Virus record (IMG/VR): IMGVR_UViG_3300009370_000001
Reading direction: 5' to 3' (one strand)
Origin: a virus
Lineage: Duplodnaviria; Caudoviricetes
DNA length: 64,000 nt
Positions 21,140 to 52,784 of the stretch are shown here, one piece after another. The position numbers and the translations under genes were made by a program. A model generated the notes under the pieces. It was not told the origin of the DNA and made no database searches. It saw only the letters and a list, made by a program, of their open reading frames with translations. Positions within the stretch are counted from its first letter, which is position 1; every line of letters begins with the position of its first letter.

Positions 21140-21145
21140 CATAAA

Positions 21146-21708: not shown

Positions 21709-21733
21709 GTATGCATAGAACGGAGAAAACTAT

Positions 21734-22577: not shown

Positions 22578-22600
22578 GCTTGCATACGATGGAGAAAGCG

Positions 22601-22805: not shown

Positions 22806-22846
22806 ATTAGCGTAAGAAACAAAGAACCCCGAACCCGGAACCAATC

Positions 22847-23935: not shown

Positions 23936-24141
23936 GGATCTTGAAGGCTGGCGACCTACTAATCAGGGAGCGCGATAAGCGCCCCTGTATCGTCTTGGAG
24001 GTCCAAGAGAGTACGAAACCCCAGTGGGGCACCCTGGACGCCAGCAGACGGCGATACAGGCTCTTTGAGAGCCATTCTGGAGTGTCCCGCTGGGTAGTCG
24101 ATACCGAGGTTGCCGTCAAATACACCCTAACAACCGATTGA
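23932..24141 (+). CDS. xGDLV-family small protein
   Basis: LKAGDLLI...CIVLEV; stop in TTGACA. Confidence 0.65.
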   Translation: MRILKAGDLLIRERDKRPCIVLEVQESTKPQWGTLDASRRRYRLFESHSGVSRWVVDTEVAVKYTLTTD

Positions 24142-24192
24142 CATTCACTTGACAACTTTTCCCTGGACAAACCTACGTACCCATGCTATATT
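24138..24192 (+). promoter_or_regulatory. Triple-box early-promoter element
   Basis: TTGACA 24138, TTGACA 24149, TGGACA 24164, 17 nt, TGC-TATATT 24187. Confidence 0.85.
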
Positions 24193-24217
24193 GTATGTGT
24201 AGAAAGGAAAGAACCCT

Positions 24218-25474
24218 ATGAGCGACGACAAACCCACTCCCTTTGACTTGAACAAGCACACGGCGCGGCTGCTTATGCGCGAGCCGTTTTTCGCTGGGCT
24301 GTCTCGGCGGATCGACAAGACCCCGACGACTGAGATCCCGACTGCCGGTGTTCGCATTAATCCCGAACGGGCACAGTTTGAGTTGATGTATAACCCTGAC
24401 TTCATGGCGAGCCTTAGCGACAAGCACCGACTTGCGATCTTGAAGCATGAGTTTTACCATATCATCTTTGAGCATGTGACACACCGCAAGCCTGCCGATG
24501 GCATTAGCCGCCTGGACAACATTGCGATGGATCTGGCAATCAACGGCTTGCCCGACATGAAGACTAACCTTCCCAACGATGCCGAGCCAGGACCACCGAC
24601 CGGATCGGCTGGTGAGCCCATGAAGGCATGCATCCCCGGAGAAGGGCCATTCGCTCACTTGCCTTGTGAGAAGTCCTATGAGTGGTACAAGGCAGCACTC
24701 CAAGACATGCAGAAAGAGAAGCCAGAAGGCGAGCCAGGGGAGCCAGGACAAGGCGAGCCCGGTGATGGCGATCCCTTCGGCGGCATGGATGCGCTGGACG
24801 ATCACGGCGAGTTTGGCGAGGGTCAAGGCACCGCAGACGAGATCGCTAAGGAACGTCTGAAGGAAGCGGTAAAGCAGGCAGCAGAGGAAGCCGAGAAGGC
24901 TAATAACTGGGGCACTGTTTCAGGAAACACCCGGCGCGACATTATGGATCGCATCGCTACTAAGGTTGACTGGCGCAAGGTGTTGCGTTATTTCGTGAAG
25001 ACCACGCAACGCTCCGACAAGACCAGCACGCCGAGGAAACTGAACCGCAGATTTCCACGCATCCACGCAGGAAAGCGCGTCCGTCGTCACGCTCGCATTG
25101 CTATCAGCATCGACCAGTCTGGATCGGTGGATGATAAAATGCTTCAAGCGTTCTTCTCCGAGTTGAACAAGTTGGCCGAGATTGCCGAGTTTACTGTTAT
25201 CCCATTCGATTCAGTAGTGGGCGAGGATAAGATTTATGTATGGAAGAAGGGTGCAACCCGCAGAACCGAGCGCGTTATGTGCGGCGGGACTTGCTTTAAT
25301 GCTCCAACCAAGTACGTGAACGAACACGGATTCGATGGACATATTATCCTTACTGACCTGATGGCACCTAAGCCGATGGCGAGCAAGTGTCAACGCATGT
25401 GGATGACGACTAAGGCATACGCGGCGCGTCCCTACTTCCAGACTAACGAGCGAGTCATCGCAATCGACAGTTGA
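24218..25474 (+). CDS. DUF2201-type metallopeptidase + vWA-like domain protein
   Basis: IPTAGV, ILKHEFYH (HExxH), NIAMDLAIN, SIDQSGSV (MIDAS), GGTCF, ILTDL. Confidence 0.88.
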   Translation: MSDDKPTPFDLNKHTARLLMREPFFAGLSRRIDKTPTTEIPTAGVRINPERAQFELMYNPDFMASLSDKHRLAILKHEFYHIIFEHVTHRKPADGISRLDNIAMDLAINGLPDMKTNLPNDAEPGPPTGSAGEPMKACIPGEGPFAHLPCEKSYEWYKAALQDMQKEKPEGEPGEPGQGEPGDGDPFGGMDALDDHGEFGEGQGTADEIAKERLKEAVKQAAEEAEKANNWGTVSGNTRRDIMDRIATKVDWRKVLRYFVKTTQRSDKTSTPRKLNRRFPRIHAGKRVRRHARIAISIDQSGSVDDKMLQAFFSELNKLAEIAEFTVIPFDSVVGEDKIYVWKKGATRRTERVMCGGTCFNAPTKYVNEHGFDGHIILTDLMAPKPMASKCQRMWMTTKAYAARPYFQTNERVIAIDS

Positions 25475-25524
25475 CAAGCACTTGACATTTCGGGGTAGAC
25501 AACCTGCCCCGAATATGTTATATT
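25471..25524 (+). promoter_or_regulatory. Triple-box early-promoter element
   Basis: TTGACA 25471, TTGACA 25482, TAGACA 25496, 17 nt, TGT-TATATT 25519. Confidence 0.85.
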
Positions 25525-25552
25525 GCTATATACAAACAGGAGATCCCTACTT

Positions 25553-26362
25553 ATGGCTCGCACAACCTACGCCGACCGCTTGAAAGCCCTTATCACCAAC
25601 CCCGCTATGTCTGCGCGTGACTGCCAGTTTGCAAGCAGCTTGCTTGCCTACTACGTCAAGCGCAAGTCGCTGACCAGTGGCCGCGCTCGCTGTGTGCGCG
25701 AGCTTGAGGCACGGTACAGCGCCGAGGCAGTAGCCGAGCGTGCAGCCCGCACCGCACCGCTAACGGCTCGATTGCAGGCGCTCACTGCCCGTGTGACCGA
25801 GGGTTCATGGGCTGGCGGGTTCGTGGAGTCTTTGACCGAGCAAGTGGCGTCAGGACGCAACCTAAGCCCACGCCAGATCGAGATCCTGGAGAAGATCGAG
25901 AGCGAGCATAGCGACGAGGCTATTAATGCTGCCGCTTCCTGGGATGCCGACTTCTCCGATGACATGCGCGACCGGCTGACCGTTGCGGCACGTTATTATC
26001 GTCGCACTGGCTACTTTACTAACCTTGTGGATCGTGCGTTGACCCCTGATGGCCAACCGACCGCATTTATTCCGACTGAAAAGCAGTATCGGAAGGTCAC
26101 CGAAAACAAGTATGCACAGAAGGTATTGACCGCGCACTATGACGCGCCAAAGTACGCCACTGGCTCGATGGTGCAACTGCGCCCGAGTTGCGGCTATCTC
26201 GCACGTTCCAAAGCAGGCGACAAGCCCTGTGTCGTTATCTCGACCACGGAGCCCATCGTGAGCGCGTGCAAGGGTGCAAAGATGTATCGGATCTTGCCCA
26301 TCGGATCCGCAACTATGATCACAATCGAGGAGCGTCACATTAAGAAGGCGCGAGGAGTATAA
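25553..26362 (+). CDS. Hypothetical protein
   Basis: AGGAG RBS before ATG 25553. Confidence 0.75.
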   Translation: MARTTYADRLKALITNPAMSARDCQFASSLLAYYVKRKSLTSGRARCVRELEARYSAEAVAERAARTAPLTARLQALTARVTEGSWAGGFVESLTEQVASGRNLSPRQIEILEKIESEHSDEAINAAASWDADFSDDMRDRLTVAARYYRRTGYFTNLVDRALTPDGQPTAFIPTEKQYRKVTENKYAQKVLTAHYDAPKYATGSMVQLRPSCGYLARSKAGDKPCVVISTTEPIVSACKGAKMYRILPIGSATMITIEERHIKKARGV

Positions 26363-26364
26363 AC

Positions 26365-26670
26365 ATGAAGAGAATCCTAACCAACAGTAAAGTGATCGAG
26401 GCATGGCAGCGCGGAGAACGCGCCGCTAACCATCGTGGCACACTTCAATGTTACAGTGATGGCACGCTGTATAGCTACAACCTGCATATCGGCCAGCGCA
26501 CACCGTCAGGAGTGTGCATTGTGGGCGATTACACGGCTCCTGGCGGGGGGTTCAAGTCAGTGACTACCTCGTGCCATGTCGGACGCGCCAAGCGCGTTCC
26601 TGGGGTCACTGTGATGCACCCGCTTGTGTGGGTCGATTCTCCGTTGAGTAACGAGGAAATCCCATTCTAA
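26365..26670 (+). CDS. Hypothetical protein
   Basis: GAGGAG RBS; YSYNLHIG...SVTTSCHV pattern. Confidence 0.7.
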   Translation: MKRILTNSKVIEAWQRGERAANHRGTLQCYSDGTLYSYNLHIGQRTPSGVCIVGDYTAPGGGFKSVTTSCHVGRAKRVPGVTVMHPLVWVDSPLSNEEIPF

Positions 26671-26683
26671 CCCGAGACAGATT

Positions 26684-26929
26684 ATGGAAGACAACAATAT
26701 CATTAACCTTGTCGAAATCCTTGAGGAGAAGGAAAGACAGAAAGAGAGAGAAGAAGAAATGGAAAAGGCCGAGCTACGCGATCAACTGCAATGGGTGTTG
26801 CAGAAACTCCATGAGAAGAACATCACCTATCGAGCAGAAGACGAAGAAGAAATAGGGTTTGATGCTTATGAGCGAGTTCCTAAACGTAACTGGTTCCAGC
26901 GTTTTCTGGACCGCTTTCGATACGATTGA
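26684..26929 (+). CDS. Hypothetical acidic protein
   Basis: Stop in TTGACA. Confidence 0.65.
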   Translation: MEDNNIINLVEILEEKERQKEREEEMEKAELRDQLQWVLQKLHEKNITYRAEDEEEIGFDAYERVPKRNWFQRFLDRFRYD

Positions 26930-26980
26930 CACACACTTGACAACCTAAACCTTGACAGTCACCCCGAAAAGTGCTATATT
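26926..26980 (+). promoter_or_regulatory. Triple-box early-promoter element
   Basis: TTGACA 26926, TTGACA 26937, TTGACA 26952, 17 nt, TGC-TATATT 26975. Confidence 0.9.
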
Positions 26981-27003
26981 GTATGCATACAACGGAGAGA
27001 ACT

Positions 27004-27195
27004 ATGACCACTTTGCCCCTTGAATCCGCCGCATATGCCTGTGAGGGCGTTATTACCGCTGTCGCAGTCCTGTCGCAAGTGCTGGAAGTCCAGCGCGTTG
27101 CGCCTGAAGACCCGCAGACCCCTGACGCAGTTAATCTGCTGTTGGAAGCCTATGCACTCGCATGCGTTGGTAGCGGCTGCGTAGCGGAGGCTTAG
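27004..27195 (+). CDS. Hypothetical protein
   Basis: GGAG RBS before ATG 27004. Confidence 0.6.
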   Translation: MTTLPLESAAYACEGVITAVAVLSQVLEVQRVAPEDPQTPDAVNLLLEAYALACVGSGCVAEA

Positions 27196-27196
27196 A

Positions 27197-27442
27197 ATGA
27201 CTATTAAAGTTGTACGCGAGAACCGCAACCCCCGAGATCATCAGATCCGAGTGGGTGATCTGATTCGGATCGTTAATCACGATCCAACAATGTCGATCCC
27301 CCTGGCGGCTGTCCCGCACACTCTCGGCCTTGTCACAGAAATGGGAGAACCGGCGACGTGCCCCGACTACGTGATCGCTGTCTTCCCGCACCTGGGCGAG
27401 ACAGTCGTATACGAAGACGAATGGGAAGTGATTAGTGTTTGA
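27197..27442 (+). CDS. xGDLV-family protein
   Basis: IRVGDLIR...LGLVTE...EWEVISV. Confidence 0.7.
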   Translation: MTIKVVRENRNPRDHQIRVGDLIRIVNHDPTMSIPLAAVPHTLGLVTEMGEPATCPDYVIAVFPHLGETVVYEDEWEVISV

Positions 27443-27674
27443 CGTGGGAACCATTGTATCAGTTATTTCGACCGACCAGCCACTTAAAGGGATCGTCGTG
27501 CCGAATGGTTTTGATCCACCCGTGCATATCAACGCGGATCTTAAGACTCCGCCCTATCCGTGGGATGATCTTCCCGGTGTATCAATGGTGCTGATTACAA
27601 GTAGCGGAGAGTATCAAGGAAAAGTGTATCCCTTTCAGAAGCATCAACTGGAGATTATAAGTGACTCAAGTTAA
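27435..27674 (+). CDS. xGDLV-family protein
   Basis: FDVGTIV...KGIVV...LEIISDSS. Confidence 0.65.
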   Translation: MFDVGTIVSVISTDQPLKGIVVPNGFDPPVHINADLKTPPYPWDDLPGVSMVLITSSGEYQGKVYPFQKHQLEIISDSS

Positions 27675-27972
27675 AGTCAGTATCCCGCCCGCGCTGTTCA
27701 CAGCCCCGAGCGGTCAACGCTATGCGGTTGCAGGCTCACAGTGGATTCGTGTGCCCCTGGACACGACTCACGCGACCCTTGACCAGTTTGTGAGCTACTC
27801 GCCGCCAGAAGTCCAGCAGGACGACAATAATGGATCGTGGCAAGTGCAAGGCTCCAAGGGCAACACTTATACTGTGCGCGTTCGCGCCGGTCAGTGGTTC
27901 TGCTCCTGTCCTGGCTATGGCTTTCGGCGCAAGTGCCGACACATCGAGGAGACAAGAAATGCAAATCGGTGA
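27661..27972 (+). CDS. SWIM zinc-finger protein
   Basis: GSKGNTYTV...WFCSCPGY...KCRHI. Confidence 0.8.
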   Translation: MTQVKVSIPPALFTAPSGQRYAVAGSQWIRVPLDTTHATLDQFVSYSPPEVQQDDNNGSWQVQGSKGNTYTVRVRAGQWFCSCPGYGFRRKCRHIEETRNANR

Positions 27973-28168
27973 TTTGATTCGTTTTGTTAATACGGGTTGT
28001 CATGGCGTGGTTCTGTCCGTCCGTCCGTCCCGCCACCACATCGATCCCGACTGGATTTATGTCTTGTGCGGTCCTGATGCTGATGGCCACCGGGCAACAG
28101 GCGAACCTACGGCTTTTCCCAGGGACTACCTCGCAAGAGTGTCGGAGGTTATAAATGCAAGTCGGTGA
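27959..28168 (+). CDS. MKVGDLV-family small protein
   Basis: MQIGDLIR...HGVVLSV...EVINASR. Confidence 0.7.
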   Translation: MQIGDLIRFVNTGCHGVVLSVRPSRHHIDPDWIYVLCGPDADGHRATGEPTAFPRDYLARVSEVINASR

Positions 28169-28343
28169 TCTCGTAGTGTTTAGGGATGACCGGGTGCCTG
28201 GAGTGATTGTAGCAGAAAGGCGCGACGATCCGCTCCCCAAGAAACTCCGTGTGGGTGTATTGTGGATCGATTGTAATGATGTGTCGTGGGAGCCAATCCA
28301 ATACTTGCGAGTGATAAGCGAGACAGATAATGAAAATCGGTGA
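28155..28343 (+). CDS. MKVGDLV-family small protein
   Basis: MQVGDLVV...GVIV...VLW...YLRVISE. Confidence 0.7.
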   Translation: MQVGDLVVFRDDRVPGVIVAERRDDPLPKKLRVGVLWIDCNDVSWEPIQYLRVISETDNENR

Positions 28344-35761: not shown

Positions 35762-36256
35762 ATGAAACTTATAATGGAAAATTGGCGGCGTTATTTAACA
35801 GAACAAGAAGCTTCTTGGGGAGACTGGACAATTGAAGAACTCGAAGACTTAATTAAAAATGCTCGTGAAGAAGAGAATGTACAAGCCAAAAAATGGCTTG
35901 GGAAAACAATGGGTATTGAATTTATAAAACTCATTCCTGTTCTTGGTCACGCATTAACTGGAGGTGAGGTCTTGAGCGGTCTTTATAAGAAGCACAAGCG
36001 ATCTGAGGCAGAATCCGATGATAATCCTGAAGATTTTCCAATTTTAGATATTTTAGACGTCGATCCTTATCTTATTCAAACACTCGATCAAGAAATTTTA
36101 AATAGTATTGATGAAGAATATGAAAAATATTTACATGGCTTGCCGGCCGGAACGCGCATAAAAGACATCACCGATATTAATGATTTTATTCGAGGAATCG
36201 TTGCGCGCCAAACGAAGAAGCATGTTACCATTGTTGATCAAAGCGGAGAAGGTTAA
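35762..36256 (+). CDS. Leader-bearing hypothetical protein
   Basis: MKLIMENWRRYLTE. Confidence 0.75.
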   Translation: MKLIMENWRRYLTEQEASWGDWTIEELEDLIKNAREEENVQAKKWLGKTMGIEFIKLIPVLGHALTGGEVLSGLYKKHKRSEAESDDNPEDFPILDILDVDPYLIQTLDQEILNSIDEEYEKYLHGLPAGTRIKDITDINDFIRGIVARQTKKHVTIVDQSGEG

Positions 36257-38856
36257 TGATCAAGGTCCGTATTGGAAAAAAGAAATCGCATTGCGGCGAA
36301 GCCAAGAAAATAGGCTTTGGTCAGGGCACACCTCCAAAAGGTGAATGGTATAAGAAGCAAGAGATCGTCGTTGAAGACACAAAACTCCTCCGCGAACTCA
36401 CTGAAGACGAGCTTGAGCGCGCGCTAGCTGCCGTCGAGGAAATCGATCCCGACGAATTGGCTTTTAACCAAATCTTTGGCGATAAAAAGCGCCTCGTTAT
36501 TGATTTTCCTGTCGCTAATTTAGATTCAGAAGCGGGACGCTTCATTAACATGTGGGGCGATCTGGATGATGTGGAGACCGGCAGCGGCTATAGCGCCGAT
36601 TGGCAAAAAGGAATTATCTCAGGACTGCGCACTATCAAAGATGAAAGTCTTGTTGGTGTGCCTGCCGAGATAGAGCGCGCCGCGTTTGGTTTCGGTGGCG
36701 AGAAAGAAAAAGGCCCGAAACAGAAGAAAGTCCAAATGAAAATTGGAAAATTCTTTGCCAAAATACACGATTTAGCCACAAAGCGTCAAGAGATTATTCA
36801 ACTATATTGGAAAAAGCACCACGAAAAGCATTTTAAAGGCGACCGACCTTATAGAGGGGGCCAAGCAAACTTTTCTCACATTCCAGTCGGAGAGATCCGA
36901 GACCTAATTGGAGACGAAAAAGTGGAGCGTTACGATCAACTGACCAATCAGCTTAAAATGTATTTAGGCACCAAAGGAATGACCCGATTTGCCCAATTTC
37001 CAGACACCGCCCTCCGCGCTGGCGAATACTGGCAGAAAAACGCAGGTTTTATTAAGAAAAACATCGACGGGATGACTAACGATAAATACGCCATCGTTAT
37101 TACGCGTGATCCAGTCGATATGTTTCGCATGAGCGACTTCAATCAAATTACTTCATGCCACTCTCCACCATCAAGACCTTCGGAATCGGGCAATTCATAT
37201 TATAAATGCGCGGTTGCTGAGGCTATGGGTCACGGAGCAGTCGCCTATGTAGTCGACAAGACCGATTTGCTGGCTGCTGCTGACGCTGAGGCGCTTCCAG
37301 AAGCAGAAGACAATATCCAGGAAGGAGAACTTTTTGCGGACGAGACACGGGGCTCTCACGTCGGTTATGAAATGGATCTGGTTCCGCTCTCGCGCATTCG
37401 TTTGCGTCAGTATCGCTATTACGACAGCACCGCTCTAGCAACTGACGCAGCAGACTATGCAAAACCTAGCATTGAAGGCGGCACACAACTGGCTGTGCCT
37501 GAAATTGGAACCACACCATATGGTCTTAATATCCCAGGCTTCCTTGAACGCTTAGAAGGCTGGGCGAGAGAAAACCAGCAAGAGGCCATGACCCAAGTAC
37601 CCAAGACGAGCAAAGGTAAAATAGAGTCGGGAGCCTTTGTACTTTATGGAGGAGCTTATGAAGAAGCTAGAACGAGCGGAGGCATGGGCCGCCGCAAAAT
37701 GCTTGCAAGCTTTTTTGAAGTGCGCTTTGATGAAATGACAGGCGAGCCTCGACAAGACACGTCGACGGAACGCAAACTGCCAAAAGATATTGGAAAAGGA
37801 ATAATTGAGTTTACTGAAGAAGCAGTCGCACGAGTTGCGATGCAATGGAATGACTCTTGGCATCGGAGTTCACCCGGAACTGCCGAACACCCAGGCATGC
37901 AGGTCTTCGCCCGAGTAGAAGACATGGGACAAAACGAGGATGGCGGATATGATTTTGCTATCGAGGGATCCGCAGTGATGCGTGTATTTTGGGATGCCGA
38001 TGAGTGGGAGAGGCTACCAAGAGCCGATGAGACAGATTGGATAGATCGCGAGGTTGCAGAATATGGCTTTGGCTTTGTTCAGGATTTAGTGGTCATTAGG
38101 CGTGGAGATATGATATATGCTAAATTCGATATTAACAATAATGGGGTTTATAATCTCTATCATTACGGTACGTCTATCGAAGTTGATTTAGTACATACTG
38201 GGGTAACTCACTCGCCAGACGGCTTCGAAGAATATTGTCTGGAAATTAACAAGATAGATGATGTTCGAGAAGGACTCAAGGCTGTTCTCTCCACCTTTTT
38301 TAAACGCCAAGGCTGGCTTCAAGGGGGCGCCTACATGCAGTTAGCCATGGATATTGAAAACGACGAACTGACCTCTTATGAATGGGATCTCCGAACAGAC
38401 GGAGAATATGAAGACTCCTATGAAGCCACCGCCACCGTTACACATGACTTTGATCCCGAAGAGTTAAATATCAATCCTGAAGTGTTATTGGGGATTCTTG
38501 AAGACCGGGAATTTAGATTGCTGGTACGCACTCAATTCTTGCATGCGTTGCAGAAAACGACAGGCATAGACTTTCAGTTGGATATCGTGCCCGAGAAAGT
38601 AACGAATATTGGTGGGACGCTGCGGTTTCCATTTACTTTTCAAGTTACAGCCGATGACCCCACTGAACGTGTAGAATTATTTCGCGCTCTCGTTGAAGAG
38701 ATCGACGACGAAGATGATATTGCGGCGCGCTTCGAGAAAGCGATGGCTCACGCACTAAACAACATGAAGCCCGTAGCGTATCGACAGAATTTGGACGAGA
38801 ACAAAAAATATGATGCCGATTGGGCACTAAAAAGATGGAAACAAAATTTTAACTAA
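36256..38856 (+). CDS. 866-aa hypothetical protein, probable virion component
   Basis: Long ORF; LLRE/LTE motifs near the N-terminus; ITRDPVDMFRMSDF...SCHS...CAVAE block. Confidence 0.75.
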   Translation: MIKVRIGKKKSHCGEAKKIGFGQGTPPKGEWYKKQEIVVEDTKLLRELTEDELERALAAVEEIDPDELAFNQIFGDKKRLVIDFPVANLDSEAGRFINMWGDLDDVETGSGYSADWQKGIISGLRTIKDESLVGVPAEIERAAFGFGGEKEKGPKQKKVQMKIGKFFAKIHDLATKRQEIIQLYWKKHHEKHFKGDRPYRGGQANFSHIPVGEIRDLIGDEKVERYDQLTNQLKMYLGTKGMTRFAQFPDTALRAGEYWQKNAGFIKKNIDGMTNDKYAIVITRDPVDMFRMSDFNQITSCHSPPSRPSESGNSYYKCAVAEAMGHGAVAYVVDKTDLLAAADAEALPEAEDNIQEGELFADETRGSHVGYEMDLVPLSRIRLRQYRYYDSTALATDAADYAKPSIEGGTQLAVPEIGTTPYGLNIPGFLERLEGWARENQQEAMTQVPKTSKGKIESGAFVLYGGAYEEARTSGGMGRRKMLASFFEVRFDEMTGEPRQDTSTERKLPKDIGKGIIEFTEEAVARVAMQWNDSWHRSSPGTAEHPGMQVFARVEDMGQNEDGGYDFAIEGSAVMRVFWDADEWERLPRADETDWIDREVAEYGFGFVQDLVVIRRGDMIYAKFDINNNGVYNLYHYGTSIEVDLVHTGVTHSPDGFEEYCLEINKIDDVREGLKAVLSTFFKRQGWLQGGAYMQLAMDIENDELTSYEWDLRTDGEYEDSYEATATVTHDFDPEELNINPEVLLGILEDREFRLLVRTQFLHALQKTTGIDFQLDIVPEKVTNIGGTLRFPFTFQVTADDPTERVELFRALVEEIDDEDDIAARFEKAMAHALNNMKPVAYRQNLDENKKYDADWALKRWKQNFN

Positions 38857-38867: not shown

Positions 38868-39518
38868 ATGAGAAAGAGATTAATCGAAGCATGTGCATTT
38901 ATGCTTTTGTTAGTAGCATGCACAACGTTAGTGTTTGGTATTGCAGGATGCAAGCCCAAGTTAACTACCGACGATAGCACAACCCCACCTATCCCCCAGG
39001 TAGATGATTCTGCTATTACAATTTCCCCCACCGATAGCGATGATCGCTCTTGGGTAACTTGGGAGACTTGTTCACAAAAACCAGGAGATCATCCCTGTGA
39101 TTTTGAATTGATGGATCAGCATGGAGATATGGTGAGTCTATACGATTATCACGGAAAGGTTATTGTAATTGATCTGTCAACAATTTGGTGTGGGGTGTGT
39201 AACAACATCGCACAAGAAGGTGATGAGTGGCTCAATGATTATGGTGCGGAAAACTTTATCTGGCTAACTATCTTAATTGATAATGCTACAGGCGATCCTC
39301 CCACATTAGCTGATATCCAGCATTGGGCTACGGTATACGGCATCGAAGTGCCTGTGCTAGTAGGCGACCGAAGCTTAGTAGATCTAACCGCTGAAACGGG
39401 TTATCCGTGCACCGGTTGGCCAACACTAGTTGTAATCGACCGAGAGATGGTTTTACAATACGGTATTAATGGATGGAATGAAACAACCATTCGTGGGTGG
39501 GTGCAAAGTCTGTTATGA
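38868..39518 (+). CDS. Thioredoxin-fold (TlpA/AhpC-TSA-like) lipoprotein
   Basis: Lipobox GIAGC; DFELMDQHG, STIWCGVC (CxxC), GWPTLVVID. Confidence 0.88.
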   Translation: MRKRLIEACAFMLLLVACTTLVFGIAGCKPKLTTDDSTTPPIPQVDDSAITISPTDSDDRSWVTWETCSQKPGDHPCDFELMDQHGDMVSLYDYHGKVIVIDLSTIWCGVCNNIAQEGDEWLNDYGAENFIWLTILIDNATGDPPTLADIQHWATVYGIEVPVLVGDRSLVDLTAETGYPCTGWPTLVVIDREMVLQYGINGWNETTIRGWVQSLL

Positions 39519-40084
39519 TGTCCTTGTTGCTACTCTTGGGGTGCACCAACGCGCCTGTCATCGTAGTGCAAGAGACAACTACGCATGAAGAACGCCAACT
39601 CCATAAAGTATCAGAGACTATTGATGCTTCGTTCTTTAATCGTGGCCCACAAAGTCAAGGAGGATGGCAGGGCACCCCCGACATCCGTGTGTGCACCACC
39701 GCACCCATTTCTCAGCGGAGAGTAGAAAAAGGACTTGACTTTTGGCGAGAACTAGGTTATAGTTTTGGTAGGATATATTATAATGATGTATCGAGACATT
39801 GTATTGAAGATATATTTTCATATAATACAATAATCATTGATTTGATTGACGGAACACACAGAGAGCCAGCGCTCGCCACCACAACGTCGTGGATTGACCG
39901 AGAAACCCGAGAGATTTTGAAAGCCAAAATTGCGCTTAAAAATACATGGGGCGAAGCCGACCGAATTCTAGAACACGAGCTTGGGCATGCGCTAGGCTGG
40001 CTCGACTATAATCAAACTGGTCATATTATGCACCACGAATGGAGTCGAGGAGGACTAAATACCATGGGAGTGGAAGTCCAATGA
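39515..40084 (+). CDS. Matrixin/metzincin-like metalloprotease lipoprotein
   Basis: Lipobox LLLGC; HELGHALGWLD (HExxHxxGxxD) followed by the Met-turn HIM. Confidence 0.8.
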   Translation: MMSLLLLLGCTNAPVIVVQETTTHEERQLHKVSETIDASFFNRGPQSQGGWQGTPDIRVCTTAPISQRRVEKGLDFWRELGYSFGRIYYNDVSRHCIEDIFSYNTIIIDLIDGTHREPALATTTSWIDRETREILKAKIALKNTWGEADRILEHELGHALGWLDYNQTGHIMHHEWSRGGLNTMGVEVQ

Positions 40085-40710
40085 AACTTTTAATGGAAAA
40101 TTGGCGAGAGTTTTTGAATGAGACCTCACCTCCTTTTGAAGAGATTCAATCTATTATTGATCAAAATCCTTATTTAAAAGGCAAAGTTAGTGCAACTGAG
40201 GAGACAGTCTACGATATGGGGGATAAATATCTCCTGATGTCGGGGGTTTCCCACATAGCCGAGCGCCACCAAGATAAATGTTTTCCAGGCTCTCTTTTTC
40301 TCCAAGATGAGGAAGTGATAAAGAAAGCAATTCTCAATATTGTAGCCCAAATGCCCCCTGCGGAAGGAAAAGCGCTAGCTATGCCTTCGGGGATTTCTGG
40401 ACTTGGAATGGAGAGATTAGTCAAAACAACACCTGAAGAAGTCGCCGGACTTGAAGATTACACGATGAATGATGGTACAATTGTTAAAATTAAACGCGAA
40501 GGCAATAATCCCGGGCAAGTAACCGATAAATTAACAGTTATTGCTCCCTCTATTGGCAACATAGGTGGAAAGCCTCTACTTTCTCTAATAACTGCGTTTC
40601 CGGGTTTCATGGGAACTGGGCGCGGCGGTGACGGAGATATTGAGATCCTTGACCGCAGCGATTTTACAAAAAATGGATATTATTTTTTAATCCCAGAGGA
40701 TTGTAAATGA
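40081..40710 (+). CDS. Leader-bearing protein with RNase-toxin-like motifs
   Basis: MKLLMENWREFLNE; GVSHIAERH...GSLF and C-terminal LITAFP. Confidence 0.55.
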   Translation: MKLLMENWREFLNETSPPFEEIQSIIDQNPYLKGKVSATEETVYDMGDKYLLMSGVSHIAERHQDKCFPGSLFLQDEEVIKKAILNIVAQMPPAEGKALAMPSGISGLGMERLVKTTPEEVAGLEDYTMNDGTIVKIKREGNNPGQVTDKLTVIAPSIGNIGGKPLLSLITAFPGFMGTGRGGDGDIEILDRSDFTKNGYYFLIPEDCK

Positions 40711-41153
40711 AACTCCTACTTGAAAATTGGCGGAAGTATTTGACGGAGACAATCGGATTAGACGATAATCCTGATTTATCACAAGACGGCTTTGAAACGG
40801 CAAAATTGCCTATTCCCTTAGAATTTAGATATGCAGAAACAGACGAGACCATTGAAACAAAAGAAGGTCCAGTAAACGCAACCGCCGGCGATGCTATCAT
40901 GACCGGCACTGAAGGTGAACAATGGCCGATCCCCGCAGAGAAATTTGCAGAGACTTATGATGATTTAGGCGACGGAACAGCCGCAAAGAAAAACATTCCT
41001 GTTTTTGCTAAAGAAATGGCTGAGCCCTTCCAAGTTAAAGTATCATGGTCAGATGATTTATTACAAGGCGAAGCAGGAGACTATTTAGTTCAATACGGCG
41101 TGGGTGACTACGGCGTTGTGGGCAGAGAAATATTTGGAAAAACATATAAATGA
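40707..41153 (+). CDS. Leader-bearing PGDYG-family protein
   Basis: MKLLLENWRKYLTE; TKEGPVNATAGDAIMTGTEGEQWPI...FAETY; AGDYLV. Confidence 0.8.
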   Translation: MKLLLENWRKYLTETIGLDDNPDLSQDGFETAKLPIPLEFRYAETDETIETKEGPVNATAGDAIMTGTEGEQWPIPAEKFAETYDDLGDGTAAKKNIPVFAKEMAEPFQVKVSWSDDLLQGEAGDYLVQYGVGDYGVVGREIFGKTYK

Positions 41154-41878
41154 AACTCCTACTTGAAAATTGGCGAGAGTTCATAAATGAAAACCAAGAA
41201 GGATCTGGGCTGCTTTACCACGCCACCTTGTCTGGTGAGAATAACAGCATTGTTCGTTCATTTATTGATAACGGGATCGATCCAACGCGCGCTGGGGGCT
41301 TTGGTCAAGGTGGAGGCTTCTATCTTTGGACCGATATAAAGGATGCCCATCATTATATTAAAGGCTTGGTTTACGGCATGAAGGGCGCTTCGAAAGAGGA
41401 GGAGGTCGAAGGCAAGCCCATTATAGTAGTGGTTGACGAACCAGTTACTCCTCAAAACTTTGATATTGATTATGAACTGTATGCTAAGGGGCTTATTGGT
41501 TTTATCGAAGGTAACCTTGATTACTTTAAACAAAATGGTGAAGCCCTAGGTATTATAACAAAAAAGCTTGACAGTCATTTGAGTGTTGATAAAAAAGCAC
41601 TTGGCCTCCAGGGCGGGAGGAAGACTGTTGCTCGATGGGATTCTCGCGCTTCGTGGGATAGTGACATACATGGAGAAGACTACGGAATTGATATTGGCAC
41701 TGGTGAACTGTTGGGAATGGTGGCATCTAAACTTCATGAATTGGACCCCACAAAATATGAAGAGTTTGAGAAGCAGGCTCTCCCGCCTGCCCGGGCTTTA
41801 AAATACAATGGCGAAACAAAGATTTGGCCATTACGCATTGAAGATGCCGAAGGCAATGTTCTGTGGAGCAGAGAATGA
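41150..41878 (+). CDS. Leader-bearing ADP-ribosyltransferase-fold protein (H-Y-x clade)
   Basis: MKLLLENWREFINE; LYHAT...NGID...GFGQGGGFYLWTDIKDAHHY. Confidence 0.65.
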   Translation: MKLLLENWREFINENQEGSGLLYHATLSGENNSIVRSFIDNGIDPTRAGGFGQGGGFYLWTDIKDAHHYIKGLVYGMKGASKEEEVEGKPIIVVVDEPVTPQNFDIDYELYAKGLIGFIEGNLDYFKQNGEALGIITKKLDSHLSVDKKALGLQGGRKTVARWDSRASWDSDIHGEDYGIDIGTGELLGMVASKLHELDPTKYEEFEKQALPPARALKYNGETKIWPLRIEDAEGNVLWSRE

Positions 41879-42501
41879 AACTCCTACTTGAAAATTGGCG
41901 GAAGTTTTTAAACGAGAAAAAATGGGAAGACTTTGATCATCCCAAGAATCAATGGGCCGATGTTTCACCCAGTGATATCAAAGCCGCACAACATCCGATT
42001 AATGTAGACTTATCTGATGAATTATATGATCTGATTGATGTTGCATATGCTGCCATAGGAGGCAATTTTGATTTTGCTAACTCTGGCGATCTTCCTGGCG
42101 ATCATGATCAGTGGGGAGCTATTGACATCGATGATGATCCGGAACCAGATGCACTTCGTGTTTCCAAAACAAAGCCGGCCGGCTCAAAGATGACTGTCGC
42201 AGGTCATGACGGGTCCAAGTCTGGAAAAGATGCCTATATTAGCAGGACTGCCGAATTATTATCACAACCGGGACACTATGCGGAAATGTCCAAGAAAATT
42301 GCGGATATTATGATAAAATATTATGATATCCCGGCGGTCACCGACCCCGAAAAAGTACAGCAAGTATTGGGTCCTAATAAGTCTATCAAATGGCTCGGAC
42401 CCCACCCAGAAGGAAAGCATCCTGGCATTGACGGCTGGTATACGAGAGACATCGGTCCCAATAAAGATATTCTCAAGATTATGCTTGGGAATCCAAAATG
42501 A
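41875..42501 (+). CDS. Leader-bearing conserved phage hypothetical protein
   Basis: MKLLLENWRKFLNE; LIDVAYAAIGG, IDIDDDPEPDA, GHDGS blocks. Confidence 0.75.
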   Translation: MKLLLENWRKFLNEKKWEDFDHPKNQWADVSPSDIKAAQHPINVDLSDELYDLIDVAYAAIGGNFDFANSGDLPGDHDQWGAIDIDDDPEPDALRVSKTKPAGSKMTVAGHDGSKSGKDAYISRTAELLSQPGHYAEMSKKIADIMIKYYDIPAVTDPEKVQQVLGPNKSIKWLGPHPEGKHPGIDGWYTRDIGPNKDILKIMLGNPK

Positions 42502-42947
42502 AAATTCTATTTTTACACGGACTTGAATCAACCCCAGGCGGAAGAAAGCCCACGACCATCTCAGATGCTGGCTACGAAGTGATTGAGCCAATTCTTCCTG
42601 CGAACAGTTGGAACGATAGTATCAGCGCAGCCCAAGAGGCATATGATGAAGAACAACCAGATATCATAGTTGGTTCGTCCCGGGGAGGAGCAGTTGCTAT
42701 GGCCGCTAATCTTCCTGCACGTAAAATGATTTTAATTGCGCCGGCGTGGAAAAAGTATTGCCCTGGTTGTACTATTGCTCCCAATACAATTATTCTTCAT
42801 TCGCCTGATGACGAGGTAATAGCCTTTGCAGACAGCAGACTATTGTCGAAGATGTTCGGCGCCGAACTAGTTATAGCGGGCGATGACCACCGCATGAATG
42901 ATAGCGGAGCATTGGCTAAGATGATGCAGGCAATAGATAACTCATGA
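42498..42947 (+). CDS. YqiA/UPF0227-like alpha/beta hydrolase (esterase)
   Basis: LFLHGLES, VGSSRGG nucleophile elbow, HSPDDEVI (Asp), GDDHRM (His). Confidence 0.88.
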   Translation: MKILFLHGLESTPGGRKPTTISDAGYEVIEPILPANSWNDSISAAQEAYDEEQPDIIVGSSRGGAVAMAANLPARKMILIAPAWKKYCPGCTIAPNTIILHSPDDEVIAFADSRLLSKMFGAELVIAGDDHRMNDSGALAKMMQAIDNS

Positions 42948-42979
42948 AACTCCTACTTGAAAATTGGCGAGGGCTATAA
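42944..42979 (+). pseudogene. Orphan leader stub MKLLLENWRGL*
   Basis: Identical leader DNA truncated by TAA, immediately followed in frame by ATG 42980. Confidence 0.8.
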
Positions 42980-44425
42980 ATGGCAATAACTCTAGAATAT
43001 ATGAGGCGTAAACAAAAACAACTGGAAAGAAAAATGCGGCGCGAAGCTGAATTGGAAGCTGAAAAAGAGGCAGAACGAGTTGCTGAGATAGAGGCCGAAC
43101 TTCGCGAACAGGAAGAAATTGCTGCAAGGGCGCGCCTTCTTGTGGAACAACAGGAAGATAAGCGCCTTCATCAGAGGTATCTTAAAAGAAAGCAAAAAAT
43201 AGCAGATCAAAAATGGGATAACCAGTTTGACGCTTTAATGACTCAGATAAAAAATCAAACCCAAAAGGATAATAAGCTTGAAGAAATAAGGTTTATAATC
43301 CAAAATCGCGAACCCTCTCTTCAACAGCTTGATTGGGATACGTGGTTATCCGTTCCTTTCAATCAAAGGCTCGCTGAATTGGATTTTGAGCGGGCGATGG
43401 AAATGTTTAAGCGCGATAATCTAATGTCTGCACGGCGTAAGAAAACGCGCGGGAAGTCTCCCAAGATCGATGCTGCTGTTAATTATGCATTATCATTCAC
43501 TGGCAATGATGCAGTAGGCGCCCGCGCAGATTTGGTCGCAACATCGTTTACTCCTAATGATCCTACAAATAAAGGCTTTTCAAGTTCTGACAGAAAACCA
43601 CTTGCAGAATCAGGATTTACTATATCATTTTGGTGGAGACCAGACCAAAACTATCAGGATTCATTTCCTATTGGCTGGAAAAGAGATACACATGCCAGAT
43701 TTGACTTTGGAATAAGAAATGCATCAAAACCATGGTTTGGTTTAGGCAGTTCAGAATTAAAAGGCGTAACTTGGGAAACTATGTTTGATGATTCAGGTAA
43801 TTCAGATTTAAAAAACACATTATTGGATAGTGGCGAAGGAACAGACCCCGGCTCTGGTAATCATTTAATACTGGGTAAATGGTATCATCTTGTAGCAACA
43901 TATGCAGGTACTGATAATCCTGATGGTGATGGTTACATGCTCCGTAAAATATATTTAAATGGATATCACATATATGGGGGATTTGGTGAAGCAAAGCAAT
44001 CTGTGAACTGGACGAGCCACACTGGCGCTCAGATGGCCCGGGGTTTAGCTTTTGGTATGCGCGTAGTAGTAGCTTCAGGAACGGACTCAGAATCAGGACT
44101 AAGAAATGCTAAATATAACAACGGAAACGCATGTGGGCTTGATGAAATAGCTATTTATAGTGAAGCCAAAGATGCCGATTGGGTTACGAATGTATATAAT
44201 GGTGGTGTGGATTACAATCATAAAGATTCGGGCGGCGATGGTCTTGTAGGATATTGGAGACTTAATGAAGGTAATGGAAATACTGTTAAAGATTTATCAG
44301 GATATGGTTGGCACGGAACATTCACTAATGCTTCATACGGAACAAAGATTGATGCCGCTATAGCCGATCTACCACCTTCAGGAACACCAACTTGGATCAA
44401 GGTACCAACAGGATACGGTCAATAA
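42980..44425 (+). CDS. Coiled-coil + LamG/concanavalin-A-like domain protein
   Basis: E/R/K-rich N-terminus; FTISFW, WYHLVATY, IYLNG, GLDEIAIY, LVGYWRLNEGNGNTVKDLSG. Confidence 0.85.
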   Translation: MAITLEYMRRKQKQLERKMRREAELEAEKEAERVAEIEAELREQEEIAARARLLVEQQEDKRLHQRYLKRKQKIADQKWDNQFDALMTQIKNQTQKDNKLEEIRFIIQNREPSLQQLDWDTWLSVPFNQRLAELDFERAMEMFKRDNLMSARRKKTRGKSPKIDAAVNYALSFTGNDAVGARADLVATSFTPNDPTNKGFSSSDRKPLAESGFTISFWWRPDQNYQDSFPIGWKRDTHARFDFGIRNASKPWFGLGSSELKGVTWETMFDDSGNSDLKNTLLDSGEGTDPGSGNHLILGKWYHLVATYAGTDNPDGDGYMLRKIYLNGYHIYGGFGEAKQSVNWTSHTGAQMARGLAFGMRVVVASGTDSESGLRNAKYNNGNACGLDEIAIYSEAKDADWVTNVYNGGVDYNHKDSGGDGLVGYWRLNEGNGNTVKDLSGYGWHGTFTNASYGTKIDAAIADLPPSGTPTWIKVPTGYGQ

Positions 44426-45009
44426 TGAAACTCCTACTTGAAAATTGGCGACGATTTTTAAATGAGGAGCAGGAGTACGAGATTTACTGTGACATGGATG
44501 GTGTGCTTGTAGACTTCGAATTAGGGGCCGTAGAGCACATCACAAGCGACTTAAAAAGCGGAAAGGCTTCCGAGCTAGAGGAAGAGCTTGGACGCGATTA
44601 TATCACCGCTGAGGATATTAGGTCAAATAAGTCCGTTAGAAATTATATGTACAAAGAATTAGAACATAACGCAGAATTTTGGGAGAACTTGCCTTGGATA
44701 GAAAATGGTCCCGAATTGTGGGCCGCAATTGCTCCATATAATCCGAATATATTAACAACCCCTATGGGATATGGATCCGAAATTGGCAAACAAGCTTGGA
44801 TTGATAAAAACTTAAGCCCCCTCCCCCAACAAGTTTTTATGTCGAGAGATAAATATCGCTGGGCCGATAAAAATAGTATTTTGATCGATGATTGGACAAA
44901 AAACACCATTCCTTGGGAAGAACACGGCGGCATAGCTATTTTACATCGAGATTCAGACATAGAAAAAACACTGTCAACACTGCAGGAACTCGGACTGCAA
45001 ACTAATTAA
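44425..45009 (+). CDS. Leader-bearing HAD-family 5'(3')-deoxyribonucleotidase-like protein
   Basis: MKLLLENWRRFLNE; IYCDMDGVLVDF, FWENLPW, ILTTP, GKQAW, ILIDD. Confidence 0.88.
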   Translation: MKLLLENWRRFLNEEQEYEIYCDMDGVLVDFELGAVEHITSDLKSGKASELEEELGRDYITAEDIRSNKSVRNYMYKELEHNAEFWENLPWIENGPELWAAIAPYNPNILTTPMGYGSEIGKQAWIDKNLSPLPQQVFMSRDKYRWADKNSILIDDWTKNTIPWEEHGGIAILHRDSDIEKTLSTLQELGLQTN

Positions 45010-45033
45010 AAGAGTGCGGCAGGAGGCAACAAT

Positions 45034-45351
45034 ATGGCTGATGGAGAATCTTGGGATCAATATTCCCGACTAGTTTTACAACAACTAGAAACACTTTCAA
45101 ATGGCATTGAAGCTTTGCGTGGAGAGCTTCAAGATGTCAAAAACCAACTCACAGAATTAAAAGCAAAAGAGGATCGGGTACAAGACTTAAAAGATTGGAA
45201 AGAGAAGATTGACGAGGTCGCGTCTCCTTCTCAGCTACAAAATGCGCTACAAGAAATAGAAGATTTAAAGACCTTTAAGACAAAAGCGGTCACTATTTTT
45301 GCTGTAGTGCAGTTTTTGATGGCTGCAGCAATAGCTTTATCTAGGATATAG
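45034..45351 (+). CDS. Coiled-coil protein with C-terminal TM helix (holin/XhlA-like architecture)
   Basis: Heptad-rich body; terminal AVTIFAVVQFLMAAAIAL. Confidence 0.6.
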   Translation: MADGESWDQYSRLVLQQLETLSNGIEALRGELQDVKNQLTELKAKEDRVQDLKDWKEKIDEVASPSQLQNALQEIEDLKTFKTKAVTIFAVVQFLMAAAIALSRI

Positions 45352-45365
45352 TAGCTATTTATCAT

Positions 45366-45656
45366 ATGGGATTTGACTACATAGATGAAAAAAAATTTAA
45401 GCGATTGGTTAAGCAAATTAGTGGAACCATCACTGAGAGAGATGGAGAATTAGTCCCCTATCACTCCATAATCGGTAGTGGTGCGATGTGGTGCTATCAA
45501 CCGAGTAACAAAACTATGGTAAGAGTTCTTCGCGGTACAAAAATCTTTGTTTTAGATTATGGAGACGAAACAGACGAACGCTGTCTGGCGTTAACCACGG
45601 ATGGGGTACCCATTTTGATAAAAAAAGACGAAATTATAGAAATAGGCTTTGATTAG
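45366..45656 (+). CDS. Hypothetical protein
   Basis: GCTATTTA motif upstream. Confidence 0.65.
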   Translation: MGFDYIDEKKFKRLVKQISGTITERDGELVPYHSIIGSGAMWCYQPSNKTMVRVLRGTKIFVLDYGDETDERCLALTTDGVPILIKKDEIIEIGFD

Positions 45657-45800
45657 TGTTATTTAAATTTGATAAATTTTGGAAAATTATTTTAGTAACG
45701 ATAAGTTCGTGGCTTGTCTACGCCTGCGCAGGTTATGAATTTACTACTATCACCTTGTTATCCCTTATATTAGCGGATAACCTTTTTAGTGCGACAAACG

Positions 45801-46037
45801 ATGGCAAAAAAAAGAAATAAAAGTAAAAATTATGACATCACAGGAATTGTAGAAGTCATTAATATTACTCCGGGACATCGGAAAGCAACTATATTGAACT
45901 TAGATGAACGTCGTTCGGTAGAAAAAACGGAAATTTCTGGCTCAATAGTTATAAAAAGAGCTATTTATGAAGCAAATGCTACAAAAGAACTCTCGAACCA
46001 AGAAATACCTGCCGAACGACCCAGCGATGAAAGGTAA
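45801..46037 (+). CDS. Hypothetical protein
   Basis: ORF MAKKRNKSKN... Confidence 0.5.
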   Translation: MAKKRNKSKNYDITGIVEVINITPGHRKATILNLDERRSVEKTEISGSIVIKRAIYEANATKELSNQEIPAERPSDER

Positions 46038-50217: not shown

Positions 50218-51035
50218 AAGCTGAGCAAGAGCAAATCTTAAGAGAGAATATAAGACAGTTAATTGAAGTTGTCAAGCAAAAAAGAAGTACAGTCCAAGAA
50301 ACACTGTTATTAGAAGAAGAACGCCTCCGCGGGATCGTTAGAGACTTAATTGATGTTGAACTCCAATCGCTCCGCGAGGATACTACCCCTGACAACGACC
50401 CGGTGCCCAATAAGTCTACTGGCATTAACGTTCTCGAAGATCTTTTGAAGAAAATTATTCCTGTCCTAGAGACTGATTATAAATTACTTACTACCGATGC
50501 CGAACAGCGCCAATCATTCCGCGCGCATGTTATTAATGCTGTAGTTGATGCCTTAACACCTGCTGAAGTTAATAATGAGGCTGGTGAGGAGGTTGCTGCA
50601 GCGGATGCACTAGAAGAAGAAGTAGATATAGCTATTGGCGATGAAGATAAGTTTATCGATATTCGAACTGATGCAGAAAAAAGTGCTGATGATGAAGAAG
50701 TCGAAGAGGACCCCCGCGATGGTTTTGGCGTCGCCGGCGAAGATGAAACTGGACGCAATGTAGCTTATAATGCCTTTAAAAAGATTCAAACTTCAATTAT
50801 TGATTCTTATGAATTATTATCTAATCCTGAAGACCAAGAATTGTTTTATGATTATTTGATCGCCAATCTTAAATTGTATTTTGATAAATTCGAAGGCGAA
50901 TTGGCGCCAGACGTAGAAGAGCCCACAAATCAAGCCTATGACGATGCTAAGAGCGAAGAAGGCGATATGGGCGCGCCAGATGACACTGAGATGGATTTCG
51001 GTGGTGATGAAGAAGAGATAGAATTAGAATTATGA
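50214..51035 (+). CDS. Acidic hypothetical protein, possible virion/scaffold-like
   Basis: LRENIRQLIE motifs; ACTATTTA 20 nt upstream. Confidence 0.7.
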   Translation: MKAEQEQILRENIRQLIEVVKQKRSTVQETLLLEEERLRGIVRDLIDVELQSLREDTTPDNDPVPNKSTGINVLEDLLKKIIPVLETDYKLLTTDAEQRQSFRAHVINAVVDALTPAEVNNEAGEEVAAADALEEEVDIAIGDEDKFIDIRTDAEKSADDEEVEEDPRDGFGVAGEDETGRNVAYNAFKKIQTSIIDSYELLSNPEDQELFYDYLIANLKLYFDKFEGELAPDVEEPTNQAYDDAKSEEGDMGAPDDTEMDFGGDEEEIELEL

Positions 51036-51796
51036 AAATTTTAATGGAGAATTGGCGCCAATTTATAGAACATGGCGCGTCGACACCTGAGAATGGAAAA
51101 ATATATCTTTTCGAAGATGAAAAGATCACAGAAGCATCTTTTAGCATAAGATTAAATCTATTAACAGAATCCACCACAGAGATAGAAGGCTTTTTGCGAG
51201 AATGGGAGACGTCTGCCGATTATGTGTTAAGCAAGAATGTTCTTAATGAGGGCGTAATGGATTTAGTTTCTCAGGCGGCTGCAGTGTTGAAAACACTCGC
51301 AGAGAAATCTTGGGATACGGTCACAAGTGTCACTTCAAAAGTTTTAAATTTTATTGAGAAATTTAAAGAAAAACACCCCAAAATATATAGCGCCCTCAAA
51401 TGGGCCTGTATAGCAATAATATGTATAGCGGCACTTTATCTAATAGCCAAAGCCACAGGAATGACAGCTGTTGTCCAAGCTATGGAATCACTTGCTACAT
51501 TCCAATGGCCCGATGTAGCAATTTCTGAATTGGTAAGAGATCTAACCAACCAACAGACAGTAGATGCTCTTCGAAACCTACAAGACGCATTATTAAATCG
51601 AGCAGGAGACATAGGAGTAGATCTGGTGCAAAGTGATCATCAAATCCTTCAGGATCTAGGAGATAAAATCTTAGATTCTATTCCATCGGAGCAGTCGGCT
51701 GAAGCAGTATCGGATTTCTGGGGTCAGGCGATGGAACGGTTACAGCAAGGCGCCCAGGCCGGCACGGGACAAATTGAGACCTTCACTCCAAATTAG
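51032..51796 (+). CDS. Leader-bearing protein with internal TM segment
   Basis: MKILMENWRQFIE; LLTE and VLNE motifs; WACIAIICIAALYLIA. Confidence 0.75.
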   Translation: MKILMENWRQFIEHGASTPENGKIYLFEDEKITEASFSIRLNLLTESTTEIEGFLREWETSADYVLSKNVLNEGVMDLVSQAAAVLKTLAEKSWDTVTSVTSKVLNFIEKFKEKHPKIYSALKWACIAIICIAALYLIAKATGMTAVVQAMESLATFQWPDVAISELVRDLTNQQTVDALRNLQDALLNRAGDIGVDLVQSDHQILQDLGDKILDSIPSEQSAEAVSDFWGQAMERLQQGAQAGTGQIETFTPN

Positions 51797-52176: not shown

Positions 52177-52402
52177 ATATAACGGACACTATATCATGGG
52201 CGACTTGGTCGGCTCACACAAAACAGAAGCTGCCGCCATGAAAAAAGCAAAGAAAGAAATAAAATTTAAATTTTCTGTGAGAGAAAAGAAAAAGAACGAG
52301 ATACTTATTTGGCTTGATGGTGAAAACCACGAACCACTAGGAGTTATCACACACGAATTAAAGGGGACGAAACGGCCTCGACAGGGTAAGGAGAAAGGAT
52401 AG
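52160..52402 (+). CDS. Hypothetical basic protein; 3' end overlaps the tmRNA
   Basis: MWKVYKYNG...; last 40 nt lie within the tmRNA 5' end. Confidence 0.6.
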   Translation: MWKVYKYNGHYIMGDLVGSHKTEAAAMKKAKKEIKFKFSVREKKKNEILIWLDGENHEPLGVITHELKGTKRPRQGKEKG

Positions 52403-52784
52403 TGCAAGTAGTCAAACGTACCAGCAGACTTTAAATGCAGATACAAAACATAATTGCTAATAATAATAACAATTTCGAATCTGTCCGCTTAGCGGCTTAA
52501 TCGGGTGGTTACCTAAAGCCATCAATCCAATTTAGGTATTTATCGCAACAGGATGGTAAGCGATATCTTATAGCCATCTATCTTTTTGTTAGTTTCTGAT
52601 AGCAAACTGACGCATCGATTGGAAAGGGTGAGGGTTTAGCTTGTCAGTCGATTAATCACCCCGCTTTTGTTGATTTTCACATAGCGGATGCCGGCCGTCA
52701 GACCGGTAAAAATCAACTAAACTTGTGAATGACTTGAATTTTAATATGCTTTGGACGCGGGTTCGACTCCCGCCGTCTCCACCA
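52363..52784 (+). ncRNA. ssrA: tmRNA
   Basis: 5' GGGGACGAAACGGCCTCGAC; 3' GGACGCGGGTTCGACTCCCGCCGTCTCCACCA; acceptor GGGGACG/CGTCTCC with G3-U; tag ANNNNNFESVRLAA* at 52456-52500. Confidence 0.96.

Follow-up and report, generated by a model that had tools for sequence, protein, structure and literature searches.

The window analyzed here is a stretch of 64,000 nucleotides (nt) from the IMG/VR virus record IMGVR_UViG_3300009370_000001 (Duplodnaviria; Caudoviricetes), and the element in question is a leader stub, a mini-open reading frame (mini-ORF) of 11 codons at 42944..42979 that encodes MKLLLENWRGL. All features described below lie on the plus strand. The ATG of the stub at 42944 overlaps, as ATGA, the TGA of an upstream gene for a 149-amino-acid (aa) alpha/beta-hydrolase-like protein (42498..42947; weak Abhydrolase_6/UPF0227 matches). 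The stub is closed by a TAA at 42977-42979, and the codon directly after this stop is the ATG, at 42980, of a 481-aa ORF (42980..44425). In a Pfam scan, the product of the latter showed a C-terminal Laminin_G_3 domain behind a charged, coiled-coil N-terminal part; we refer to the gene as LamG. The final A of its TAA is at the same time the A of the ATG at 44425, where a gene for a 194-aa 5'-3' deoxyribonucleotidase-like protein begins (44425..45009; PHROG 2643 in a PHROGs scan, E 2e-24). The nucleotidase carries the leader peptide as an N-terminal tag, whereas the hydrolase-like and LamG proteins are untagged. Thus, the four reading frames are chained without a gap, and the whole array of genes to which they belong is linked via ATGA or TAATG overlaps. 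A 27-nt leader repeat occupies 42944..42970 in the stub and recurs at 44425..44451 at the head of the nucleotidase gene. The original prediction for this locus had reported both the stub abutting the in-frame ATG of LamG and the 27 identical nt at the second leader copy, and the coordinates of both were confirmed.

The 3' end of the stub carries a Shine-Dalgarno (SD)-like motif, GAGGG, at 42969..42973, inside codons 9-10 and 6 nt 5' of the LamG ATG. The position of this start codon is backed by an N-terminus conserved among relatives, M-x-ITxEYMRRKQ. We sought a leader/SD hairpin in the junction RNA and found none; the RNA was less folded than its own shuffles (z = +1.66). TAA is an ordinary stop throughout the window, and no suppressor tRNA is encoded there. 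Pfam and PHROGs scans of the genes between 35762 and 51796 returned no integrase or recombinase.

The leader repeat is not confined to the two ends of LamG. The 27-mer of the stub is found exactly also at 41150..41176, on a 242-aa protein, and with one mismatch at 40707..40733, on a PGDYG-domain protein, and at 41875..41901, on a 208-aa protein; none of 100 shuffles produced a match. Looser copies head the genes at 35762..35788 (MKLIMENWR, on a 164-aa protein), 40081..40107 (the MKLLMENWR variant) and 51032..51058 (MKILMENWR, on a 254-aa protein). The family therefore has at least eight copies in the window, each at a gene start, and the exact 26-mer was found among T4-like marine phages in at least 115 contigs of IMG/VR. 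The tagged proteins are mutually dissimilar and include the PGDYG protein, the deoxyribonucleotidase and several proteins without a family. We found no paper that contains the leader peptide.

To see at which level the leader is conserved, we compared the codons of 48 copies from loci that had been found by homology of the neighboring proteins and not via the leader itself. Codons 2-9 were nearly fixed at synonymous sites: leucine was encoded by CTC in 38 of 46 cases against a background of 10%, CTA was used in 32 of 44 cases against 11%, and AGA, with a background of 38%, was never used. In codons 10-14, by contrast, the peptide was kept while codon choice was free; position 12 of the tag was mostly L, I or V, and position 14 was E in 38 copies. 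This difference shows that nt 1-27 are held at the level of DNA or RNA. The block so held is exactly what the stub keeps, and the half that the stub lacks (F/Y-L-x-E) is the part conserved at the peptide level. Several leaders have no obvious SD sequence upstream. As a separate observation, the 866-aa protein, whose gene borders the hyperplastic region in all relatives, ends (window 38800-38856) in a tag-like W-(K/R)-x-(F/Y)-(L/I) motif in most of them (e.g., TWKGFL, VWRRFI; L137, L195, L208, L034 and others), which resembles the second half of the leader.

We then evaluated how common the stub is among relatives of LamG. Eighty-eight loci were collected, 74 of which encoded distinct, complete LamG proteins. 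A stub was called canonical if the leader, with no more than 3 mismatches in 26 nt, lay directly 5' of the LamG start. The same mini-ORF was present as a canonical stub in 26 of the 74 relatives, at 40-86% protein identity to the LamG of the window, and 7 more had degenerate yet recognizable copies. Many of the remaining relatives retained just a short remnant mini-ORF with a ribosome-binding site, and some had no stub at all; in L001, L137, L195 and L208 the upstream gene is coupled straight to LamG by ATGA. On a maximum-likelihood tree of LamG, canonical stubs occurred in both basal clades, with at least 11 changes of state. Residues 1-9 of the stub peptide were intact in the 26 lineages, and a neutral scar of 36 nt could not have remained identical at 26 of 26 nt over the divergence of LamG. 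These observations indicate that the stub has been attached to LamG since before the LamG family diversified.

The most widely conserved part of the stub region is its 3' end. A GAGG/AGGG motif 5-15 nt 5' of the ATG was present in 60 of the 74 relatives, including those with decayed stubs. Of the 26 canonical stubs, 21 had their stop codon (TAA in 19, TAG in 2) directly before the LamG ATG, and the other five overlapped the ATG out of frame. Mini-ORFs that overlap LamG out of frame were found in L136/L138, L142/L151, L003-5 and L145, and many of the decayed relatives are likewise out of frame.

Directly after LamG, a leader-tagged gene was found in 54 of the 74 relatives. With the tag removed, the 36 complete downstream genes fell into 29 families. 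A downstream leader was present at 25 of 26 loci with a canonical stub as opposed to 25 of 41 stub-less loci (Fisher p = 0.0012). Thus, the leader part of the stub survives where LamG lies within an array of tagged genes, a pattern that fits homogenization by recombination with neighboring copies. Outside such arrays, LamG was found directly 3' of a tRNA gene and a CTATTTA-type motif in L150, L202, L204 and L205.

One relative bears directly on the history of the locus. Positions 376-4976 of L159 (Ga0208684_1003728) are syntenic with positions 41875-45656 of the window, with protein identities of 75% for g41875, 54% for the hydrolase, 47% for LamG, 73% for the nucleotidase and 79% for g45034. 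In L159, the hydrolase stop (TAATAA) abuts the LamG ATG and there is no stub. The same gene order without a stub indicates that the position of LamG between the hydrolase and nucleotidase genes is an old arrangement, and that LamG did not enter the nucleotidase leader recently. The identity of LamG in L159 was below that of its flanks (54-79%), which points to a replacement of LamG alleles between lineages. In contigs of two unrelated seawater metagenomes (X5 and X6), LamG (window 43200-44424) reached a summed depth of 100-290 while its neighbors were barely covered; relatives of LamG are therefore widespread whereas the surrounding cassettes vary.

Comparison of related contigs revealed gene cassettes that differ precisely at leader copies. 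The closest relative of the window flanks is L010, in which the C-terminus of g39497 is 100% identical, the nucleotidase is 90% identical and the downstream genes are syntenic. A single leader stands in L010 between the g39497 homolog and the nucleotidase, and the 4.3-kb block at 40081..44424 of the window, comprising four tagged genes, the hydrolase, the stub and LamG, is absent. This leader is chimeric: at the variant positions it matches the 40081 copy in its 5' half and the 44425 copy in its 3' half, with the crossover falling in 12 nt common to the two. An overlap of 12 nt is too short for an assembly join. Loss of the block in the lineage of L010 explains this more simply than a gain elsewhere would, because L159 shares the order g41875-hydrolase-LamG-nucleotidase with the window. 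LamG was not found in the L010 contig, a record that is only 12% complete. Tagged homologs of the nucleotidase that have no LamG upstream were present in L010, L011, L012 and L013.

Two further comparisons gave similar results. L003/L005 and L004 are 99.8% identical over 13 kb save for one leader-bounded cassette of 395 nt, which encodes a leader-tagged protein of 132 aa. L048 and L051 have flanks that are 78-85% identical, and in L048 a 10-codon stub before an untagged 293-aa gene replaces two tagged genes (148 and 342 aa), with the ATGA overlap kept upstream and a TAA-TTG junction downstream. Stubs were also found before other untagged genes. The 866-aa gene and a conserved 82-aa gene are set apart in L019-L021 and L026 by exactly 36 additional nt, which make up an 11-codon stub; in relatives such as L032 and L034, these two genes are joined directly, the TGA of the former overlapping the ATG of the latter. 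In L134 (2349-2769), a tag-only stub precedes an IscU/NifU-like gene. Counting these, three untagged genes other than LamG (82-aa, IscU-like and 293-aa) carry such stubs in other marine phage contigs. Together with the cassette differences at leaders, the recurrence of stubs suggests that they are a by-product of turnover in arrays of tagged genes, and that those which survive would retain, for the untagged gene that follows, a ribosome-binding site and closely joined stop and start codons. The leader copies are sites where related phages gained or lost gene cassettes.

By the same route, recombination between the copies at 42944 and 44425 would delete LamG cleanly and leave an intact tagged nucleotidase gene. 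This precise allele, with a hydrolase-leader-nucleotidase joint, was not found among the relatives or contigs. We examined Logan contigs of four sequencing runs, all marine DNA metagenomes, over 39500-45400. In the probable source runs, one contig spans 41876-45400 intact and no joint of a LamG excision was present, although contigs cannot show rare variants and the result thus speaks neither for nor against excision. Joints in the other runs had sides of 26-46 nt (26-30 in most cases), lengths to be expected if other phages cross-match at the leader repeat. The predicted recombination at the repeats was borne out for the leaders as points of cassette exchange (L010, L003/L004 and L048/L051), and a precise excision of LamG was not seen in the relatives and contigs examined. 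As to the proposed empty site, L010 has a single chimeric leader before the nucleotidase, but its left flank, g39497, lies 4.3 kb away in the window.

We consider it likely, though well short of certain, that the stub is what remains of a leader and has been retained to couple translation as a mini-ORF, to carry the ribosome-binding site and to provide a homology arm, and that LamG is made without a tag. The stub would be a truncated copy of a portable gene-start module encoding the tag MKLLLENWRxFLxE, a module that is found on many unrelated genes in a clade of ~190-kb marine T4-like phages. Its 3' end would serve LamG twice, with codons 9-10 providing the GAGGG ribosome-binding site and the stop abutting the start codon. 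Ribosomes arriving from the hydrolase gene through the ATGA overlap, or starting on the leader, would terminate at the LamG start, so that LamG would lack the tag. Nucleotides 1-27 may stay identical via recombination with other copies or via a shared role at the DNA or RNA level. Finally, all leader copies, the stub included, would act as direct-repeat homology arms for the gain, loss and swap of cassettes between co-infecting relatives. What the genomes compared here establish is the anatomy of the junction, how old and how widespread the stub is, that nt 1-27 are conserved at the DNA level and that natural alleles exist whose breakpoints fall in leaders; the tag is a putative capsid-targeting signal, by analogy with T4.

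Several points weigh against this explanation. We infer translation of the stub and its coupling to LamG from the geometry of the junction alone. The leader part is dispensable, as seen in the four relatives coupled by ATGA and in L159, where TAATAA directly precedes the ATG. Gene conversion without any function could by itself account for nt 1-27 being perfectly conserved in a third of the lineages. Among the recombinants, the L010 junction has only 212 nt to its left, at the end of the contig, and a 49-nt repeat at which the assembly collapsed might in principle explain how L003 and L004 differ. The first stub may have come from a collapsed tagged gene or from an insertion into a leader, both of which are compatible with the data. 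An origin by a one-base frameshift of a full leader, in which the L-N-E codons contain TAAATG one base off, was considered and rejected, since that ATG is not in the frame of the cargo.

The main rival is that the stub is a selected regulatory mini-ORF, nt 1-27 being an RNA operator or an SD-independent ribosome loading site common to the tagged genes, so that LamG is co-regulated with them while staying tag-free. Such a selected role at the RNA level would account for the fixed synonymous sites of codons 2-9, for the leaders without an obvious upstream SD, for an unstructured junction RNA and for a block kept perfectly by a stub that tags nothing. It sits poorly with the loss or degradation of the leader part in two thirds of the LamG relatives; no cognate RNA-binding regulator was identified, and gene conversion accounts for the same pattern. 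We regard it as possible but rather unlikely. We would give a similarly small chance to the idea that the 27-nt gene start is a dedicated signal for cassette exchange, integron-like or PeSL-like (promoter-early stem-loop), built on a translated repeat. Tag-only stubs would then be docking sites that mobilize untagged genes (LamG, IscU-like, 82-aa and 293-aa) between genomes, perhaps through excised circles.

The explanation first put forward holds that the nucleotidase leader was the target of a recent integration of a LamG cassette, which duplicated the leader in the manner of an att site, and that recombination between the repeats can excise the cassette, possibly as a circle. It has in its favor that 27-nt direct repeats do flank LamG, that leader-to-leader recombination removed LamG-containing DNA in L010 and that the PeSL repeats of T4-type phages, which yield mini-circles (PMC2839356), set a precedent. 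It is nonetheless very unlikely. A duplication made by the insertion would be a two-copy repeat, not a family with at least eight copies in the window and hundreds elsewhere. The stub travels with LamG as an ancient unit beside 29 families of downstream genes, L159 keeps the hydrolase-LamG-nucleotidase order without any stub, and the Pfam and PHROGs scans showed no integrase or recombinase in or beside the cassette. Even less credible is that the 11-residue peptide itself is the product, a free tag competing with tagged cargo for a receptor (prohead core or protease) and thereby tuning its loading. The intact residues 1-9 in 26 lineages and the recurrence of the same tag-only ORF before other genes are as expected for a functional peptide, yet the stub lacks the F/Y-L-x-E half, the peptide-conserved part that resembles the T4 cleavage motif, and it decays freely in many lineages. 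The last alternative, also raised by the original prediction, is low-rate readthrough or other recoding of the stub stop that would tag some of the LamG protein. The window and 20 other canonical cases have stub and LamG in the same frame, separated by just one stop, but this state is automatic when a stop abuts an ATG. Both TAA and TAG serve as the stop, the mini-ORF overlaps LamG out of frame in several relatives, and the window offers TAA as an ordinary stop and no suppressor tRNA; we find readthrough scarcely believable.

The window is a fragment of the genome of a large uncultured marine phage and encodes GroEL, PhoH, a CobS-like ATPase, tRNAs and a tmRNA. ARAGORN placed the tmRNA gene at 52363-52784, with the tag peptide ANNNNNFESVRLAA, and tRNA genes at 13160 (Leu, taa), 14623 (Ile, tat), 15151 (Lys, ttt) and 60434 (Asn, gtt). 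No similarity to cultured phages was found by DNA (40000-46000) or by protein (the 866-aa and LamG genes). A Peptidase_S77 prohead protease was encoded on 5 of 10 leader-carrying relative contigs (1 of 5 and 4 of 5 in two sets), including both contigs that CheckV rated 100% complete (186 and 196 kb), which supports the view that these phages are T4-like. The gene is absent from the window, itself a genome fragment. Two other repeat families lie in the early part of the window. A 33-nt repeat with 9 copies at 15749-28174 forms a second shared gene start, encoding M-(K/Q)-(V/I)-G-D-L-V at the beginning of small early-region ORFs. A 65-nt module, which combines a TATATT box with three TTGACA-like boxes, stands before genes in 11 copies at 13249-26990; these modules are probably early promoter cassettes.

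The locus shows how a fast-changing gene region is organized in a large group of uncultured T4-like ocean phages and supplies concrete examples of repeat-mediated gene shuffling in environmental phages. One translated module of 27 nt would serve as protein tag, translation start and recombination handle, and a gene that must stay untagged, LamG, would persist for long within a tagged array by keeping a truncated copy of the module. Annotators should take note that mini-ORFs consisting of just the tag are conserved and do not stem from noise in the assembly.

Among known systems, the behavior of the leader comes closest to the modular shuffling that PeSL cassettes mediate in the hyperplastic regions of T4-type phages (Arbiol et al. 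2010, PMC2839356; PMC4122927), where the repeats also give rise to mini-circles (PMC2839356). In both cases, the gene boundaries within a T4-like hyperplastic region are marked by short conserved repeats, direct repeats flank single genes, and the breakpoints of insertions, deletions and replacements fall in the repeats (window versus L010, L003 versus L004, L048 versus L051). PeSLs, however, are intergenic and consist of a promoter and a terminator, whereas the leader repeat is the translated first 27 nt of genes, is unstructured, with an RNA fold weaker than that of shuffles, and has neither a promoter nor a stem-loop. With these defining elements absent, membership in the PeSL class is not established. 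The promoter-like repeats of the window are separate from the leader, at 13-27 kb, and the genuine PeSL-like elements of the phage may be the 65-nt modules.

The leader array also resembles the internal-protein locus of T4, in which the capsid targeting sequence (CTS) MKTYQEFIAE is the only conserved part of otherwise diverse internal proteins (PMC8442874; PMC3012670). Here, too, a short N-terminal peptide is common to unrelated proteins of a variable locus. It starts with MK and ends in F-(L/I)-x-E, similar to the F-I-A-E of T4, and thus in the prohead-protease motif (L/I)-x-E, a part that the stub does not have; related contigs encode a T4-type prohead protease. The leader tag has 14 residues as opposed to 10, the two sequences are not demonstrably homologous, and no tag-only stub before an untagged gene has been described in T4. 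Its assignment to the CTS family is putative.

Translational coupling by termination-reinitiation is well known from abutting or overlapping stop and start codons, such as the UGAUG and UAAUG of bacterial and phage operons. The junction studied here has the same geometry: the stub overlaps the hydrolase stop with its ATG and abuts the LamG ATG with its own stop, and the array is chained by ATGA or TAATG. A stop within a few nt of the downstream start is conserved among the canonical stubs (21 of 26 directly before the ATG, the rest overlapping it). The relay ORF in this case, unlike those of ordinary operons, would be the fossil of a protein tag and not a normal gene. Set beside these systems, the principle of a shared tag is not new; what this analysis adds is a conserved tag-only stub together with documented leader-to-leader recombinants.

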